Source of the DNA: Escherichia coli
GTDB taxonomy: Bacteria > Pseudomonadota > Gammaproteobacteria > Enterobacterales > Enterobacteriaceae
Direction: 5' to 3' (one strand)
DNA: 64,000 nucleotides
Assembly (NCBI RefSeq): GCF_003334765.1
Contig: NZ_QOWT01000022.1
The notes beneath the pieces are model-generated. The model saw only the letters and a list, made by a program, of their open reading frames with translations. It was not told the origin of the DNA and ran no database searches. The translations under genes were made by a program, and so were the position numbers. Below, in pieces: positions 5,048 to 48,732 of the stretch (position 1 is its first letter; the number at the start of each line of letters is the position of its first letter).

Positions 5048-5357
5048 GTTTCACCGTCCACATTTCTTCAGGTTCATCGGGTTCTGCTACCGCTTCAACG
5101 CTCGACACACTGCCGTCAGTGCTGACCAGCACACGTTCCGTCAGTTGCAGGTTAAGGCTGATATCACAGACATCGTTGCGCAGAATATCCACCTCAAAGG
5201 TAAATAGTTTTTCCCGTAACGCCGGGTTATTGATGGCATCGGGCTGGTTATCCCGCAGCCACAGCAAAACCGGGGCCATCAGCAGATTCTGGTCGCCGCT
5301 GAAATCCTCAATCACCACGTTCAGGGTGTAACCACGCAGCCCTACGAGTTCACTAAA
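5040..5357 (-). pseudogene. R: 5'-truncated tail completion gene R (P2 gpR-like). The N-terminal ~40 codons are deleted.
   Basis: Residues ...GYTLNVVIEDFSGDQNLLMAPVLLWLRDNQPD...ISLNLQLTERVLV match the central and C-terminal part of gpR. The upstream part of the 152-aa ORF (5358-5498) is merely the antisense of the Q fragment. Confidence 0.7.
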
Positions 5358-5907: not shown

Positions 5908-5934
5908 AAAGTAGGGCAAATAATGCCCTACTTT
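5908..5934. terminator. Perfect 11-bp stem hairpin between the convergent 'Q and 285-aa genes.
   Basis: AAAGTAGGGCA-aataa-TGCCCTACTTT. It has A/T-rich flanks on both sides and overlaps the stop codon (5928-5930) of the minus-strand gene. Confidence 0.55.
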
Positions 5935-6785
5935 AACCAAATATTATAATCCAATCTTCCTACGTATCTTGAAAAAACAGCCAGAGCAATTGCTTGCCCT
6001 ACACTTGTTAATTCAATTCCTTGATAGTTGCTCTTTGAAAATTTTTCTAAAAATGCAGACACATGAGGGGCAACTAACTTAAGATTTGAAATATATGCAC
6101 TCTTATCTTTTATATCAGTCGGATATTTACTCATAAAATAGTCTTCAACATCCATCCCTAAAAAAGTATTCCATGAACAAGCCCCTGCATATTGAATGTG
6201 ATATATCTGGGCTTGAGACAAATTAAACCCATTAGTATACATTGATTCAAAGTTTCTAAAATTGTGCTCCAACAAATCCAATCGAACACCATTAACAGGG
6301 TCTTTGATCTCAACATTCTTGAGAAGAAAAACTATCGTTATAAGTGATATTTGTTGCTGTGTTAACTTGGGAACGACGGTAACTGCCTCCGTTAAAACTA
6401 TATCTCTAAAATCGTCATTGTTATTGGAGACTCGTTCAACTAACAACTGAGAAAGCACATCCATATTAGCTTTCTTTCCCTTCCTGGCTGATGACTTTAA
6501 TGCCTCAGTCAATGTAGCCTGAACGTCCGGATCGCAAAATTTATCAATAATCAATCTATCAACGTTTTTTGTTAAATCCGAAACGACACGCTCTTCAAAA
6601 TCTTTTGCATTCTCTTGAGCTGCAGCATAAGCAACATCTTTCAATTTTGGAAACTGATTTTCGAAGAGAATGTTGAATAGTTCTCTAACCTCGGAAAACG
6701 ACATCCCTGAAACATTTACATTATTTCCAGCTTGAATTGCATACGAATTATTACCTATTTGTTGCTTTTGCTTATCACTAAACAT
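5928..6785 (-). CDS. Hypothetical 285-aa protein (cargo locus between Q and cos), a candidate defence/Abi component.
   Basis: RBS GGAGGA lies 7 nt before the ATG at 6785 and 9 nt after the stop of the upstream 81-aa ORF. It is AT-rich. The N-terminus is KQQIGNNSYAIQAGNNVNVSG and the rest looks all-helical. I recognise no catalytic motif. Confidence 0.75.
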   Translation of the reverse strand: MFSDKQKQQIGNNSYAIQAGNNVNVSGMSFSEVRELFNILFENQFPKLKDVAYAAAQENAKDFEERVVSDLTKNVDRLIIDKFCDPDVQATLTEALKSSARKGKKANMDVLSQLLVERVSNNNDDFRDIVLTEAVTVVPKLTQQQISLITIVFLLKNVEIKDPVNGVRLDLLEHNFRNFESMYTNGFNLSQAQIYHIQYAGACSWNTFLGMDVEDYFMSKYPTDIKDKSAYISNLKLVAPHVSAFLEKFSKSNYQGIELTSVGQAIALAVFSRYVGRLDYNIWLK

Positions 6786-6794
6786 ATATCCTCC

Positions 6795-7040
6795 TTATTT
6801 TTTATCACCTGTATTTATACAATCAATTTTAATATCACCTCTAGCCTGGACAGCAGTTGAATTATCACCAACTGATTGGCTCATAGAATTATATTTATTT
6901 TTTGTAGTGATAAGTAATCCAGCTAAAGCGCTAACTGCAGCCAAAAATGCAACAATAGAATCAAAACCAGGATCCATATAAAGCCATAATCCTGCAATCG
7001 ATGCCAGCATACATGTAATGACTATTGCAAAAATTTTCAT
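6795..7040 (-). CDS. Small 2-TM membrane protein (81 aa), first gene of a two-gene cargo operon.
   Basis: RBS AGGAGA precedes the ATG at 7040. There are two hydrophobic helices (IFAIVITCMLASIAGLWLY and IVAFLAAVSALAGLLI). The polar tail SQSVGDNSTAVQARGDIKID resembles the N-terminus of the downstream protein. Confidence 0.65.
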   Translation of the reverse strand: MKIFAIVITCMLASIAGLWLYMDPGFDSIVAFLAAVSALAGLLITTKNKYNSMSQSVGDNSTAVQARGDIKIDCINTGDKK

Positions 7041-7063
7041 AAATTCTCCTTCTAATGGAAGTG

Positions 7064-7092
7064 GTTATACCGAAAACAATTTCCTTTTACAA
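7064..7092 (-). promoter_or_regulatory. Candidate sigma70 promoter for the 81-aa/285-aa operon.
   Basis: The minus strand reads TTGTAA-N17-TATAAC, ending ~24 nt upstream of the ATG at 7040. Confidence 0.35.
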
Positions 7093-7107
7093 CCACGCAC
7101 AGCGCGC

Positions 7108-7127
7108 GCTCGTATCCCCGCCACGCC
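7108..7127. other. cos-like site (cohesive-end region of a 186/P2-type phage).
   Basis: The reverse complement reads GGCGTGGCGGGGATACGAGC. As I recall them, the 186 and P2 cohesive ends begin GGCGTGGCGGGGAAAG... and GGCGAGGCGGGGAAAG.... The site is a GC-rich island between two AT-rich loci, at the expected map position next to the end of Q. Confidence 0.5.
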
Positions 7128-7215
7128 TGCCCGCTTTGTGTAGTGGTTTTCATGCACCTGCATGACATAAGTAAAAGCCCGCCAGAACTGGCGGGACTGA
7201 GCAAAAACGATCCTT

Positions 7216-7245
7216 TTGCGATCATTCATTTTCATGCGCTATAGT
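7216..7245 (+). promoter_or_regulatory. Candidate sigma70 promoter for the 3-gene operon.
   Basis: TTGCGA-N18-TATAGT. It would give a ~95-nt leader before the AAGGAG RBS and the ATG at 7346. Confidence 0.3.
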
Positions 7246-7345
7246 CATGCAACAAACGCATACGAACCATATGGTTAGATTACTCATCAAGTCAGATGGA
7301 TTTTCAGGCAGATTGCCACAGCAATTGTAAAGGAGCGAGATTGAA

Positions 7346-8347
7346 ATGGGTGGAGAGACTTCGGCTATACAACGAGTCGCGGGTAAGATTTCTGATGATA
7401 TTTTCTCAGTGTTCAAATGGGATCGTGCCGCTAGAGCGGACATGAATTGGGATTGTTGCCAAGAGGCTCATTCCAAGAAAACACATCCAAGCGATGTTGT
7501 ATTTTTCTACATAGATCCATATGAGGAGGAAATGGTCTATCTCAACACAGACCTCAAAAGCTATGCAGAAGGTACTATTGGGAAAAAAATAGTCGAGGGA
7601 GCTTTAACATCGCTTGCTTTAGCTACCGAGTGTGCAAATGTCAGTGAAGAATGGCGATTGAAATATGTTCATGATGATTCTTTAGGTTATAACGTAAGAG
7701 GGTTATTATTCTTATATAACCATGATAATTTATATGATAAAGACTTCTATGAGAATATTACAAAAAAATTAGATCACTCATCTATAAATTGCCCTCCAAA
7801 CATCAAACTACATTTGCTTGACCCTTATAAAATATCAGATTTGATAAACATATCTTCTGACATAACTAAGTTAATTGGTTCAGGCAAACTTCCTCAACCT
7901 GATAAGTTCACATATTATTATCCAGATCTTTCCCTAACAAGAATAAAGCACCCTATTAATCAGACAACACCTGCAACAATTGAATTATTAACATCACCAT
8001 ACATTATAATAAAGCATGAGGCTTTCAGTTGGCTCAGGGATAAAAACCCTGAGGGATATGTTGTTTATTACAATCAACCGGGGGATTCAGTAGACGAATT
8101 CGTTTACTTCTTTGATATGTTATCAACTTATCAGATATTAACCGAAGGTAAACCAATCGTATTACGCCATTGTCACATTCACCCAAATGAAAATGCCATT
8201 CATCATTTTGAAAGAGCGAAAAAGAAATACAGCACAGACTGGCTCTTAGGCGAGGATGAAAGACTTTTTCTTAAAATTGACTTCGACAAGACAGACAAAA
8301 TTGTTGTTGAATATAATCTTGAACAAATCGGCATGGAGCAACGATAA
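7346..8347 (+). CDS. Hypothetical 333-aa protein with an N-terminal PD-(D/E)xK nuclease-like motif, gene 1 of a 3-gene cargo operon.
   Basis: RBS AAGGAG. The N-terminus has an acidic helix (E4, D17-D18), then HPSD50VVFFY, then VYLNTD69-L-K71, which is the canonical restriction-endonuclease-fold spacing. The gene is AT-rich. I do not recognise the C-terminal ~220 aa. Confidence 0.7.
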   Translation: MGGETSAIQRVAGKISDDIFSVFKWDRAARADMNWDCCQEAHSKKTHPSDVVFFYIDPYEEEMVYLNTDLKSYAEGTIGKKIVEGALTSLALATECANVSEEWRLKYVHDDSLGYNVRGLLFLYNHDNLYDKDFYENITKKLDHSSINCPPNIKLHLLDPYKISDLINISSDITKLIGSGKLPQPDKFTYYYPDLSLTRIKHPINQTTPATIELLTSPYIIIKHEAFSWLRDKNPEGYVVYYNQPGDSVDEFVYFFDMLSTYQILTEGKPIVLRHCHIHPNENAIHHFERAKKKYSTDWLLGEDERLFLKIDFDKTDKIVVEYNLEQIGMEQR

Positions 8348-9426
8348 TGGCTAAAAAACTATATTTCGCAACTGATAAAAATATTTATGATGCATTACAT
8401 CATAAAAGGATAACCGCTGCAAAGTTGCATGAATTATTGTTGAATCGAGGTGTGTTTTTATCACCAGAACTCGACAAGGAAATACTAATCGAGGAAATAT
8501 CCAAACTTCCTCACGGATTTAATGAATTAGAACACATAAAAAAACTGGTCAAAACATATGACCCAAGGGAAAGCACTACTAGTGTGAGCTTCCAAACCTC
8601 AACAAATCAGGCCGAATTAAAAAGTGCTGCTGAAGCACTAAAAAAAACATGCTCCCCTAGTAAAGGTCAAAGCCTGAATATTGTAGCTAAAAAAGATGGC
8701 TCGCTTACAGTAGAATACAAATATGAAGAAATAGACCTGTCTAAAACTGCATTACGTCAGATCGACAAGCGGAATGTTATAATAGAACTTCGCCCTGGAG
8801 CTGACAAAGTTGAAGTACGTATGCCTCAAAACCCCGAGGCAAAAAAAGTTATTGAGAGCTTGCAAAACGAGCTATCTAAAATCAAGTCCGAACCTATCGA
8901 GCGCTTCGAAATATCATTACTAGCAATAACTGATCCTACATTGCGAAGTCAGTTTTTTCAGGAATTAATGAATGGTCTACGCGGTTATGAGACTGATGAC
9001 GTAACAAAAGTCGAATTAAATCGCAGTACTGATGCTAGTGAGGATGAAGACAAGGAAGAAACTATTGATACCGGATTTGTTAAGAAAGCCGTCCTTAATG
9101 GTGAAGGGGTAAATAGTTCAGCTATATTTTCTCAACTACATGAGAAAGGTTATTATATCGGGCGTATTGCATGGTCTTCAAAGCCGACAAGTGGAATTGG
9201 AGACAGAATCAACGTCGAAGCATTTTTCAAAGACTCAGAAAAATGCTGTGACTTTGCCTATCAAATTAAAGGTATAAACAATCAAAAAGAAGACGGTTTC
9301 AATGTAACCATTCGCGCGGCAACGGCACAAGAGAAAAAACATATTAGTGAATTAATTGAGTCCGCCGCTGAAAATGCCTATAATATAATAATAGGATCAG
9401 AGGTGAACGAAGATGAAAAAGGTTAA
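8347..9426 (+). CDS. Hypothetical 359-aa protein, gene 2 of the 3-gene cargo operon.
   Basis: The start overlaps the gene-1 stop (TAATG). It contains an acidic linker, DASEDEDKEE. I recognise no motif. Confidence 0.7.
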   Translation: MAKKLYFATDKNIYDALHHKRITAAKLHELLLNRGVFLSPELDKEILIEEISKLPHGFNELEHIKKLVKTYDPRESTTSVSFQTSTNQAELKSAAEALKKTCSPSKGQSLNIVAKKDGSLTVEYKYEEIDLSKTALRQIDKRNVIIELRPGADKVEVRMPQNPEAKKVIESLQNELSKIKSEPIERFEISLLAITDPTLRSQFFQELMNGLRGYETDDVTKVELNRSTDASEDEDKEETIDTGFVKKAVLNGEGVNSSAIFSQLHEKGYYIGRIAWSSKPTSGIGDRINVEAFFKDSEKCCDFAYQIKGINNQKEDGFNVTIRAATAQEKKHISELIESAAENAYNIIIGSEVNEDEKG

Positions 9427-10096
9427 ATGGCTTAAGTTAAACATACGGCTTGAGTTTGAAACAGCCGTTAGACGTCTTTCTCTTGATTCTTTTACAGAGG
9501 ATAAAGGGAAAGGGTTCATTTTTGATAAAATACGCCATGATTTTGCAAATGGTCGCTTTGTCGAGCGTATTGTTTATCATGATAAAATATTAAGCTTTGA
9601 CGGAAGCGAAACTACCGTTGAAAGAATCGAATATCGCACCACAAATTTTAGCGTGGCTTTAGACTCTCTTCCTGTAATGCAGATTACTAACCCACCCAGA
9701 ACTTTAAAGCCTTTTTCGCAGGCTTTGGTAAAAAATCTTGGCTTAGGTGTTAGTTTGGAAGAAATTGACATAAACCCTATAGACTGGCTTAATGAAATAT
9801 CTTCAAGTGTAAATATCAATTTAACACAACTTGATATTTCAAGGGTTAGAGTTTCTGATTACGCCACAGCTAAAATGCAAATAATTGGCAGCAATGATCT
9901 TAGGAAGTATTATAAAGAAGAATTAGAGGGTAAAAAAATAAGAATTGACAGGCTTGTTTGCTCTGTTAATTCATTAGAATATTCCGGTAAGCTCAAGATC
10001 ACCAATAGCGGCCTTGCTTATATTGATGTTAGAAATGAGAATGAGTTTACGAAAATCGTTTTTGATACGTTAAAAAAAGTCACCCTTCAATCATAG
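9413..10096 (+). CDS. Hypothetical 227-aa protein, gene 3 of the 3-gene cargo operon.
   Basis: The start lies 14 nt inside the end of gene 2. The sequence looks beta-rich. I recognise no motif. Confidence 0.65.
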   Translation: MKKVKWLKLNIRLEFETAVRRLSLDSFTEDKGKGFIFDKIRHDFANGRFVERIVYHDKILSFDGSETTVERIEYRTTNFSVALDSLPVMQITNPPRTLKPFSQALVKNLGLGVSLEEIDINPIDWLNEISSSVNINLTQLDISRVRVSDYATAKMQIIGSNDLRKYYKEELEGKKIRIDRLVCSVNSLEYSGKLKITNSGLAYIDVRNENEFTKIVFDTLKKVTLQS

Positions 10097-15905: not shown

Positions 15906-16109
15906 TTAAGCAGACAAAGCATCAACAGTCAGAGCAGCCAGGTTAATCATTACCTTTTCACGTTTTTTGTCTTTACGAAGACGATGACGAGGTAGTCGGC
16001 CATCAGCCAACATGTCGTTAATCGTATCAATAGAAAGGCCAGTCAGTTCGCTATAACGTTCGATTGTGACATGTGGTGTATTCAGAGTAATTGAAATGTT
16101 AGGTGTCAT
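15906..16109 (-). CDS. Apl/Cox-like HTH protein (early lytic repressor of the lysogenic promoter / excisionase).
   Basis: 67 aa, the first gene of the lytic operon and divergent/face-to-face with cI. It has an HTH-like segment, [25 protein letters not shown]. Confidence 0.65.
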
Positions 16110-16839: not shown

Positions 16840-17031
16840 ATGCTTGGTAAGGTATTTTTTGTGGTTTTGTCATGTTCTTTGTTATTAAACCCACTAACTA
16901 CCTATGCTAGAAATTATCCCTGCTCAGGGAAAAAGGGAGGTGTTTCTCACTGTACCTCAGATGGCAAATTCGTTTGCAATGATGGAACTATTAGTAAATC
17001 CAAAAAAATCTGTACTAAAAACTCACGATAA
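16840..17031 (+). CDS. Small secreted Cys-rich protein (63 aa), a moron between cI and int.
   Basis: RBS GGGAGGAAA. Signal-peptide-like N-terminus with a TYA|RN cleavage-type site. The mature ~40 aa has 4 Cys ([32 protein letters not shown]). Confidence 0.5.
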
Positions 17032-17219
17032 CTTTTGCTTTTATATCTGCGTCTAAAATAAAAATGAGCCGCAGGTTAACCGCAAAAGTTACATGCTCAC
17101 ATAGCAAAAAGAATAGCCAACTTAATTATGGCTTCAGTGAGATGTATGGTCGTAGGATTTCATACATTGACACTGGTTATACATACAGTGAAAATGCTCT
17201 CTACTGGAGGGCATTTTTT

Positions 17220-18296
17220 ATGGCAGTACGAAAACTCACCACTGGGAAATGGCTTTGCGAATGTTACCCCGCCGGACGAAGTGGGCGTCGTGTGCGTAAA
17301 CAATTCGTCACCAAAGGCGAAGCACTGGCTTTTGAGCGCCACACGATGGAAGAAACCGAAGCAAAGCCCTGGCTGGGTGAATCAGTGGATCGTCGAACAC
17401 TGAAAGACGTGGTTGAGCTATGGTTCAAACTACATGGTAAATCTCTGACAGCTGGGCAGCATGTCTATGACAAATTGCTGTTGATGGTTGACGCTCTGGG
17501 CAATCCTCTTGCAACCGATCTCACCTCTAAAATGTTTGCCCACTATCGAGATAAACGCCTGACAGGCGAGATCTACTTCAGCGAGAAATGGAAGAAAGGA
17601 GCAAGCCCGGTCACCATTAACCTGGAGCAAAGCTATCTAAGTAGTGTTTTTAGCGAACTATCCCGTCTGGGCGAATGGTCGTATCCGAACCCACTGGAGA
17701 ACATGCGAAAATTCACCATCGCAGAAAAAGAGATGGCATGGCTTACCCATGAGCAGATTGTTGAATTGCTGGCTGATTGCAAACGTCAGGACCCAATTCT
17801 GGCACTGGTAGTTAAGATATGCTTAAGCACAGGCGCACGCTGGCGTGAAGCCGTAAATCTTACCCGCTCACAGGTGACCAAATACCGAATTACCTTTGTC
17901 AGAACGAAGGGGAAGAAAAACAGAAGCATCCCTATCAGTAAAGAGCTTTACGAAGAGATCATGGCGCTTGATGGGTTCAATTTCTTCACAGACTGCTATT
18001 TTCAATTTTTATCCGTGATGGAAAAAACGTCTATCGTGCTCCCTCGCGGTCAACTCACACACGTTCTGCGCCATACGTTTGCGGCGCACTTCATGATGTC
18101 GGGTGGAAACATTCTGGCCTTACAAAAAATTCTCGGACACCACGATATAAAAATGACTATGCGTTACGCACATCTGGCACCGGATCATCTGGAAACGGCG
18201 CTCCGTTTCAATCCTCTGGCAACGCTGCCAAGTGGCGACAAAGTGGCGACAAAGTGGCGGCAGCGGTTGGCATTACCCCGTAATAACCACCACTGA
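17220..18296 (+). CDS. int: Tyrosine integrase (P2/186 Int family).
   Basis: MAVRKLTTGKWLCECYPAGRSGRRVRKQF is a typical P2-family Int N-terminus. Catalytic residues lie in TGARWREA, HVLRHTFA and MTMRYAHL. The ORF-track start at 17064 was rejected. Confidence 0.9.
   Translation: MAVRKLTTGKWLCECYPAGRSGRRVRKQFVTKGEALAFERHTMEETEAKPWLGESVDRRTLKDVVELWFKLHGKSLTAGQHVYDKLLLMVDALGNPLATDLTSKMFAHYRDKRLTGEIYFSEKWKKGASPVTINLEQSYLSSVFSELSRLGEWSYPNPLENMRKFTIAEKEMAWLTHEQIVELLADCKRQDPILALVVKICLSTGARWREAVNLTRSQVTKYRITFVRTKGKKNRSIPISKELYEEIMALDGFNFFTDCYFQFLSVMEKTSIVLPRGQLTHVLRHTFAAHFMMSGGNILALQKILGHHDIKMTMRYAHLAPDHLETALRFNPLATLPSGDKVATKWRQRLALPRNNHH
18232..18260 (+). repeat. Tandem 11-nt repeat GTGGCGACAAA x2 plus a partial copy, inside the 3' end of int.
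   Basis: Read directly: GTGGCGACAAA GTGGCGACAAA GTGGCGG. Confidence 0.8.
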
Positions 18297-18304
18297 CCAC
18301 CAAC

Positions 18305-18338
18305 CTAACTTATTGTTTTTAATCTAACTTATTGTTTT
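18305..18338 (+). repeat. Two direct copies of CTAACTTATTGTTTT, 19 nt apart, just downstream of int (possible Int arm-type sites).
   Basis: Read directly at 18305-18319 and 18324-18338. The functional assignment is inference from P2-type attP architecture. Confidence 0.6.
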
Positions 18339-18342
18339 CATT

Positions 18343-18371
18343 AACCCGTTTACATAAATGGGTTTTTTGTT
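18343..18371 (+). terminator. rybB: Rho-independent terminator hairpin at attR. Its right arm and U-tract match the 3' end of sRNA rybB as I recall it.
   Basis: AACCCGTTT-acat-AAATGGGTT followed by TTTTTGTT. The remembered RybB 3' end is ...GGUUGAUGGGUUUUUUGUU, 17 nt from the rcdA stop in K-12, and the same 17-nt spacing is seen here. The RybB 5' seed region is not present in the window. Confidence 0.5.
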
Positions 18372-18387
18372 ATCTAAAACTTATCTA

Positions 18388-18924
18388 CTACCCTGCAACC
18401 CTCTCAACCATCCTCAAAATCTCCTCGCGCGATAGCGGCTTACGGTCGGTGACAAAATGCAGCGTCATCCCCTCAATAAACGCATCAAGCGCGCGGGCGG
18501 TTCCGGGTTCAAACCATTGTTCGAGCGTTTGCTGACTGCGCTGCATCCAGTTTTGCATTACCGTTTTTAATAGCGGTTTTCGGCTAGCCAGCGCGTAGAG
18601 CTGGTACATCAGCTCCATGTTATCCGGCGTTGCAACCTGTGAGCTGTAGATCATATCGGTGATAGCCTGGCATGCGCCCGGAGCATCACTAACATCGCTA
18701 AAAAATGCCTGATATTGCCGGGACATGATCTCAGTAAAACTGCTGAACGCCTCCAGTAACAACTCATCAATTCCTGAAAAATAGTAGGTCATCGATCCCA
18801 ACGGTACCCCGGCAAGGGTAGCAATTTTGCGGTGCGTAACAGCATGTATTCCGTAAAGTTTCACCGCCTCCAGCGTGGCCTGGATAATTTTTTCTCGCCG
18901 TTGCGGATCGTTAGCGCGACGCAT
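18388..18924 (-). CDS. rcdA: TetR-family transcriptional regulator RcdA (YbjK).
   Basis: 178 aa from [35 protein letters not shown], which matches K-12 RcdA. Confidence 0.9.
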
Positions 18925-48634: not shown

Positions 48635-48732
48635 CCTGATGCGGCGTTAACGCCTTATCCGGCCTACAAAGTCCTGCAGATTCAATATATTGCAGGTACT
48701 GCGTAGGCCTGATAAGCGTAGCGCATCAGGCT
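48635..48732. repeat. REP/BIME element (two inverted REP units).
   Basis: GCCTGATGCGGCGTTAACGCCTTATCCGGCCTAC ... GTAGGCCTGATAAGCGTAGCGCATCAGGC. Confidence 0.85.

Follow-up and report, generated by a model that had tools for sequence, protein, structure and literature searches.

Organization of the locus

The window, that is, the whole stretch of 64 kb of E. coli DNA analyzed here, contains a P2/186-like prophage, the int-proximal end of which meets the chromosome at 18297-18387, where the P arm of the phage is followed by a common core and then by the host flank. Directly adjacent lies int (17220..18296, plus strand; TGA stop at 18294-18296), which encodes the tyrosine integrase of the prophage. 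Its product, with 358 amino acids here and 350 in relatives, carries an Int_N domain (PF24624, 3e-32) and a Phage_integrase domain (PF00589, 8e-22) according to Pfam, and is identical or nearly so to Int of the Klebsiella phage KP12, bar one substitution and the C-terminal tail. A promoter-like site, TTGACA-17-GAAAAT, is present at 17167-17195 (plus strand), just upstream of the int start codon (ATG at 17220). Between cI and int, an ORF of 63 amino acids (16840-17031, plus strand) has a hydrophobic N-terminus and several cysteines; it had no match in Pfam; in strain HSP425, it bears the annotation "YdcA family protein."

The DNA to the left of the junction encodes a CI repressor, CII, Fil, a replication endonuclease, DinI, and baseplate and tail proteins. 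Compared with the prophage of HSP425, to which it is 99.9% identical over the shared part, the one in the window lacks 7,059 bp (breakpoint at about 5325-5332, where the two pieces of the alignment overlap by 8 bp). The missing segment starts inside the portal gene, comprises the genes for terminase, scaffold, capsid, small terminase, head completion, holin, lysozyme, and LysB/C, and reaches into a tail gene. Because the terminase, capsid, and lysis genes are gone, the prophage is defective. A variable cargo region (5928-10096) is located beside the DinI-like gene, ∼0.7 kb from the replication gene, and holds a gene of the LPO_1073/Vpar_1526 family (5928-6785, minus strand) and three adjacent unnamed ORFs (7346-10096, plus strand). 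Its position corresponds to that of a retron (St85 type) in the rybB prophage of strain 20A24, and the rybB prophage of E. coli B carries the retron Ec86 (PMC3032704); the cargo region is possibly a defence locus. The single Rfam match in the window at the gathering threshold, to the sRNA ES036 (CssrF; 48668-48710, plus strand, 41.6 bits), lies in the art/ybj region and probably represents a REP-like element.

On the host side, the first gene is rcdA (ybjK; 18388..18924, minus strand, 537 nt), annotated in RefSeq as DNA-binding transcriptional regulator RcdA and convergent with rybB. According to Papenfort et al (2006; PMC1804206), the latter gene is located in the ybjK-ybjL spacer, has a promoter for sigmaE, and ends in a Rho-independent terminator. 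The original prediction had started from two direct repeats, a hairpin with a T-run, and a short gap to rcdA, all of which are found where it had placed them.

The prophage boundary lies within the rybB terminator

To locate the boundary, the junction was compared with chromosomes not occupied at this site. In one of them (strain G1/2), rybB resides in the ybjL-rcdA spacer (L001:2436-2531; Rfam RF00110, 105 bits), and its terminus, ...CCCATCAACCCCGCCATTTCGGTTCAAGGTTGATGGGTTTTTTGTT, is followed by ATCTAAAACTTATCTA and the rcdA stop codon, which is identical to window positions 18358-18390. The rybB end at this empty site can also be written ...GGTTGATGGGTTTTTTGTT, with the same 16 nt and the rcdA stop thereafter. 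In the window, this host spacer (ATCTAAAACTTATCTA, plus strand) extends over the 16 nt at 18372..18387, between the T-run and the rcdA stop codon beginning at 18388 (plus-strand coordinates), and is identical to L001:2515-2530. Thus, the RybB 3′ end given in the original prediction, and its geometry relative to rcdA, were correct. When a 501-nt query spanning the junction was compared by megablast with 5,426 complete E. coli genomes, 5,423 gave matches, on the side annotated as rcdA, and most of the alignments started at query base 159 or 160, which corresponds to window positions 18358-18359 and the start of ATGGGTTTTTTGTT. It is within rybB that the match to the empty chromosome is interrupted; apart from this break, the host flank is colinear. 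The proposed integration into the rybB terminator is thereby substantiated, with the boundary at exactly 18358.

The common core, ATGGGTTTTTTGTT (18358..18371, plus strand), is the 14 bp over which attP and attB are identical in E. coli, and it equals the final 5 nt of the rybB terminator stem plus the U-tail. Judged by this identity, the crossover must lie within 18358-18371. That the 14 bp agree by chance is ruled out by the thousands of genomes with an empty site and by both junctions in relatives. The rybB gene itself is absent from the window (Rfam, gathering threshold), where only its last 14 nt are present; a search for partial RybB in 18200-18450 at E <= 10 gave no match to the covariance model, and the only Rfam hits in this interval at that threshold were two weak chance matches to CRISPR repeats in the 3′ end of int. 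As the window contains neither rybB nor a second copy of ATGGGTTTTTTGTT, which occurs only once in the 64 kb, the other end of the prophage lies outside of it.

The extent of the core differs between hosts. In Klebsiella (4LV2017 and KP12), attP and attB are identical over 19 bp (ATGGGTTTTTTGTTGCCTG), compared with 14 bp in E. coli, where the identity ends because the host flank is ATCTAAAAC. The E. coli spacer ATCTAAAACTTATCTA resembles the P′ arm of attP, GCCTGAAATTTAT, at 9 of 13 positions. The int-side flank of several other genera goes on in the manner of the phage arm, as GCCTGAAAT, which suggests cores of 23 bp or more there. A further arrangement was observed in genomes of the cryptic clades (Escherichia sp.; L009-L011, about 2628-2660), in which the int-side junction reads ATGGGTTTTTTGTTGCCTGAAATTTATCTACTAC and a phage-like flank (GCCTGAAATTTAT) precedes the end of rcdA, the flank in E. 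coli being ATCTAAAACTTAT instead. Either attB differs in these lineages, or crossover or conversion extended further to the right.

By the usual convention, the int-proximal junction is called attL. The original prediction was right in identifying an attachment junction, but the name it chose, attR, applies only with respect to the orientation of the window; in KY271398, the record of phage 4LV2017, the int-proximal junction is annotated as attL.

The junction hairpin is native to attP

An inverted repeat, AACCCGTTT-ACAT-AAATGGGTT, spans 18343-18364 (stem 18343-18351/18356-18364, loop ACAT), and TTTTTTGTT carries on to 18371; the entire element (18343..18371, plus strand) is a putative int terminator. 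The 9-bp stem, which includes three G-C pairs, has a predicted folding energy of −9.0 kcal/mol (z = −2.4), a value equaled by 5 of 200 shuffled sequences, and a terminator scan detected the hairpin as well. It starts 47 nt after the int stop codon, in sense orientation, and is followed by six T. Thus, the sequence hallmarks of an intrinsic (Rho-independent) terminator are present, namely, a G+C-containing stem-loop, a U-run, sense orientation, and a position downstream of a gene, although the stem is weak. The folding energy of the native rybB terminator is −23.3 kcal/mol, as opposed to −9.0 for the junction hairpin, at which termination may be only partial.

A clone of phage KP12 (OM835953) provides an uninterrupted attP (L008:2290-2500), in which int is followed by AAGTGGCGACAAAGTGGCGGCA, two boxes (see below), CATTAACCCGTTTACATAA, ATGGGTTTTTTGTT, GTCTGAAATTTATGCC, GATGGCGACAAATTGGCGGCA, and ogr, in this order. 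The hairpin is present there unchanged, and its left arm is without counterpart in attB. This comparison verifies that the left arm is phage-derived, as had been proposed. It also shows that the hairpin was not made chimeric by integration, contrary to the original prediction, as hairpin and T-run are native to attP in their entirety. The hairpin survives integration because its right arm and the T-run constitute the core, with the crossover inside. Two other potential sources of attP were set aside: the record of phage vB_EcoM-813R9 is a prophage prediction that includes host genes, and of 80 IMG/VR contigs, most of which break off at the int stop or a few bases beyond it, none was used for the att region.

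The left arm had also been suggested to mimic the RybB stem, but the similarity of CATTAACCCG and CATCAACCCCG does not exceed chance and is out of structural register. A mimic by descent, in which the left arm would go back to a captured rybB stem that has since degenerated, is very unlikely for the same reasons: even though CATTAACCC and CATCAACCC agree at 8 of 9 positions, local alignments of shuffled sequences matched or beat the score in 1,350 of 2,000 cases for the whole arm and in 144 of 2,000 for its last 25 nt, the matched CCC pairs in another register than its equivalent in the RybB stem, and there was no match to the RybB covariance model at E <= 10 (see above).

More can be learned from 19 rybB-class loci of Escherichia, Klebsiella, Raoultella, Citrobacter, Enterobacter, Silvania, and others. 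There, substitutions in the left arm mostly keep the pairing (G.U to A-U, C-G to U.G), the two exceptions being L025 and the Serratia-type locus L057. Serratia-type relatives with the core CGGGTTTTTTGTT have no evident matching left arm, so the hairpin is not universal in the family. That the hairpin is the intrinsic terminator of int is plausible and the most economical reading of these data. Yet the inverted repeat AACCCGTTT/AAATGGGTT adjoins and overlaps the core and is conserved in rybB-class attP sites of many genera, as would be expected if it acted mainly in recombination, as core-type Int binding region or through intasome structure, and resembled a terminator only incidentally. This is rather unlikely, since the left arm has no equivalent in attB, since a run of six T follows directly downstream of the int stop and in sense orientation, and since the changes in the left arm of relatives preserve pairing of the RNA type, including G.U. 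The two roles are, moreover, not mutually exclusive. From its position and structure, we therefore infer that the hairpin functions as terminator of int.

Candidate binding sites for Int and IHF

The sequence CTAACTTATTGTTTT occurs exactly twice, at 18305-18319 and 18324-18338, and no third copy with two or fewer mismatches exists in the 64 kb. The repeat extends to 18 nt if one mismatch is allowed (18302-18319 and 18321-18338). By eye, a possible ACCACC repeat with a spacing of 10-11 bp can be discerned at 18280-18300.

The direct repeats had been nominated as Int arm-type sites, which is highly unlikely. They are exact, located between int and the core, and conserved in position among relatives, all of which would suit arm-type sites; however, they bear no likeness to the arm consensus published for the 186 type, tgccGCCActt (Nilsson et al; PMC3448106), and their motif is absent from the ogr-side arm, although arm sites should flank the core on either side. 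Instead, a different repeat 60-130 bp upstream fits tgccGCCActt, and does so on both arms. This repeat comprises the 11-mers AAGTGGCGACA, AAGTGGCGACA, and AAGTGGCGGCA, arranged in tandem at 18230..18262 (plus strand) inside the 3′ end of int. As AAGTGGCGRCA, they are the reverse complement (AAGTGGCggca) of the consensus, and a second pair, GATGGCGACA-AATTGGCGGCA, is found in the arm at the ogr side, both in attP and in related lysogens. Furthermore, the N-terminus of Int, GKWLCECY, holds the residues W, E, and Y, which are discriminators of 186-type arm-site recognition (PMC3448106). The pair TGGCGRCA-N3-TGGCGRCA also exists in 41 related loci of several target classes. The 11-mers at 18230-18262 are, therefore, the best candidate for the Int arm-type sites, and binding of Int to them is predicted from this agreement.

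Comparison with BL21(DE3) points in the same direction. Its locus (L002 2512-4150) has a prophage remnant at rybB, beside rcdA, and differs from the window in its int allele and in an extra ORF of 110 amino acids. Homology to the window begins just at the 11-mers, preceded by the different int allele and the extra ORF, which argues for cis elements rather than coding constraint. From the arm sites on, P arm, hairpin, and core are those of the window, bar a few substitutions in and between the two boxes.

The window carries three of the arm-type 11-mers, every relative two. The version with three copies was found neither in the 5,426 complete E. coli genomes (best match 177/188 nt) nor in 166 fetched loci; the int-side junction of HSP425 is that of the window except for one 11-mer. 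The extra 11 nt shift the reading frame at the C-terminus of Int from ...KVAAAVGITP* to ...KVATKWRQRLALPRNNHH*, so that the tail AAVGITP* is replaced by TKWRQRLALPRNNHH*. The third copy may be due to a genuine slippage mutation or to an error of sequencing. Together with the frameshifted Int tail, it might alter excision of the defective prophage.

What, then, are the two CTAACTTATTGTTTT boxes? Their central part, TAACTTATTGTTT (18306..18318 in the first and 18325..18337 in the second, both plus strand), was scored against YAANNNNTTGATW, the complement of the consensus for IHF sites, WATCAANNNNTTR. Both boxes agree with it at 8 of 9 specified positions and are flanked by an A/T tract. The comparison was extended to 41 loci from different species, with Int 50-100% identical, of which 19 target rybB, 9 ssrA, 5 ryeA/ryeB, and 8 other sites. 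In nearly all of them, the sequences closest to the IHF consensus are located 67/68 and 86/87 from the arm sites and agree with it at 7-9 of 9 positions; at the offset of box 1, all 9 are matched in many relatives. For phage 186, attP is known to contain IHF sites (PMC7498355). IHF sites are the preferred assignment for the boxes and probably the correct one, judging from consensus and spacing. On the other hand, the boxes are 19 bp apart, closer than two full IHF footprints, and could be sites for another protein instead.

The main alternative to IHF is a phage excisionase (recombination directionality factor, RDF), for which the boxes would be operators; a Cox/Apl-like protein encoded at 15906-16109 (minus strand) is a candidate RDF. 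In P2-like attP, RDF sites are indeed direct repeats between arm sites and core (PMC7498355). However, such operators are spaced 10-11 bp and at least three adjacent ones are needed, compared with only two boxes 19 bp apart here. In addition, the motif CTAACTTATTG is absent from the cI-cox switch region, to which such RDFs also bind, and the boxes are conserved across elements with Int only ∼50-55% identical, which a host factor explains better. Operators of an RDF thus fit poorly and are quite unlikely, and the boxes are best regarded as putative IHF sites; binding of IHF is what we infer from the comparison of the 41 loci.

rybB is restored at the far end of related prophages

The original prediction had expected an intact rybB and the same core at the other end of the prophage. 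For the prophage in the window, this end lies outside, but the expectation was confirmed in every related lysogen examined (H3, HSP425, and 4LV2017). In strain H3, the full element is inserted between rcdA and ybjL; rybB attains its full 105 bits at the ogr side, where the junction reads ...GGTTG ATGGGTTTTTTGTT gcctgaaatttatgcc. The ogr-side junctions in relatives have the form ...GGTTG-ATGGGTTTTTTGTT-gcctgaaat; HSP425, whose prophage is likewise located between rcdA and ybjL, shares this junction and has an intact rybB (105 bits). For Klebsiella phage 4LV2017 (KY271398), attL and attR are annotated at rybB, and the gene is again intact. A different situation was observed in Salmonella enterica s1 (L047, 180-2468), where an intact rybB is located only ∼1.3 kb upstream of a truncated int and the core next to int has deteriorated to ATGTTTTTTGTT; what is left at the rybB site is a prophage in an advanced state of decay.

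Taken together, the segment 18297-18387 is almost certainly the int-proximal junction of a P2/186-like (Fels-2-group) prophage in the 3′ end of rybB, with a hairpin native to attP. Sequence comparison establishes the position of the junction, the core, the phage origin of the hairpin, and the reconstitution of rybB in relatives. According to the proposed mechanism, a phage of this kind would insert into the 3′ end of the sigmaE-dependent sRNA gene by site-specific recombination of the tyrosine-recombinase type. Its attP would provide the 14 bp ATGGGTTTTTTGTT that it has in common with the end of the RybB terminator stem and the U-tail, and strand exchange within this identity would yield a complete rybB at the ogr end. 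The int end would keep the phage's own hairpin, of which the right arm and the T-run are the core and which most likely serves as intrinsic terminator of int. The P arm would have the standard layout of the 186 type, with Int arm-type 11-mers in the 3′ end of int (18230-18262) and, between these and the core, the two CTAACTTATTGTTTT boxes, which are most likely sites of bending by IHF. For the far end of the prophage in the window, the predicted order is intact rybB, ATGGGTTTTTTGTT, and gcctgaaatttat.

Relation to known integration systems

The locus is a classic example of a temperate phage that uses the 3′ end of a structured RNA gene and brings along a replacement for it. Published work has already described P2-like prophages integrated into rybB, and the site is an ordinary attachment site. 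Three P2-type prophages, Rybb*W in E. coli W, Rybb*B in E. coli B, and Rybb*Cr in the Crooks strain, were reported at the "rybB ncRNA" (Archer et al, 2011; PMC3032704), and Kpn38RybB "precisely within the gene for ... RybB" (Hudson et al, 2014; PMC4048246). PhiECO1, PhiECO2 (the host of which is the Crooks strain, ATCC 8739), and PhiECO3 form one integration-site class (Nilsson et al, 2011; PMC3448106), and hotspot #29, with 109 genomes, consists solely of Felsduovirus prophages in rybB (Hochhauser et al, 2023; PMC10121019). The P arm described here is carried by 1,123 of the 5,426 complete E. coli genomes (21%). The prophage in the window does not differ essentially from those at this hotspot, being of the same kind and at the same chromosomal site; its peculiarities are the extra 11-bp arm repeat, the frameshifted Int tail, and the 7-kb internal deletion.

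The Klebsiella phages 4LV2017 (KY271398, Elveevirus) and KP12 (OM835953) are 95-96% identical to the window at the DNA level from int to the core and have the same hairpin, boxes, and arm sites. Coliphage 186 has the same 186-type N-terminal residues in Int, and IHF is part of its attP complex; its attP contains Apl operators besides Int arm sites and IHF sites. Like the prophage in the window, 186 targets the 3′ end of a structured RNA gene, which is restored (PMC3448106, PMC7498355), but its core lies in a tRNA-Ile gene, whereas the target here is an Hfq-dependent sRNA. Core and target RNA are different again for Fels-2 and SopE-phi, which reside at ssrA, and for the ryeA/ryeB (SraC/SdsR) hotspot of Salmonella. 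Among the loci compared here, ssrA cores are represented by L053-L064 and L085, and ryeA/ryeB (SraC/RyeA-SdsR/RyeB) cores by L036, L039, L042, L044, and L051. Even relatives with Int 50-57% identical have the same pair of arm sites and two IHF-like boxes at the same spacing.

Implications

Lysogens should produce unchanged RybB, since the 3′ end brought in by the phage is identical, and because the RNA sequence is the same through the U-tail, no RybB phenotype is expected. On integration, a weak hairpin takes the place of the strong rybB hairpin (−23 kcal/mol), which ends up more than 25 kb from the 3′ end of rcdA. The 3′ half of the hairpin and the U-tail in the 3′-UTR of int (18297-18371) are identical to the Hfq-binding tail of RybB. 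It is conceivable, but highly improbable, that this 3′-UTR could yield a phage-derived, Hfq-binding fragment, that 3′-end formation of rcdA is changed, with antisense read-through into int, and that the third arm site alters excision.

The finding is of little importance beyond correct annotation. For the latter, the anatomy at the level of single bases could help to set prophage boundaries precisely, with a core of 14 bp in E. coli compared with 19 bp or more in Klebsiella and Enterobacter, and to design PCR assays of empty and occupied sites at rybB, which is known as a hotspot for P2-like prophages; defence systems are often carried by these. It could also help to avoid mislabeling of cis elements, as the arm sites are part of the int 3′ end and the two IHF-like boxes have a fixed spacing. 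This spacing spans relatives that target rybB, ssrA, and ryeA/ryeB, and what emerges from their comparison looks like a modular attP scaffold with exchangeable cores aimed at small-RNA genes.
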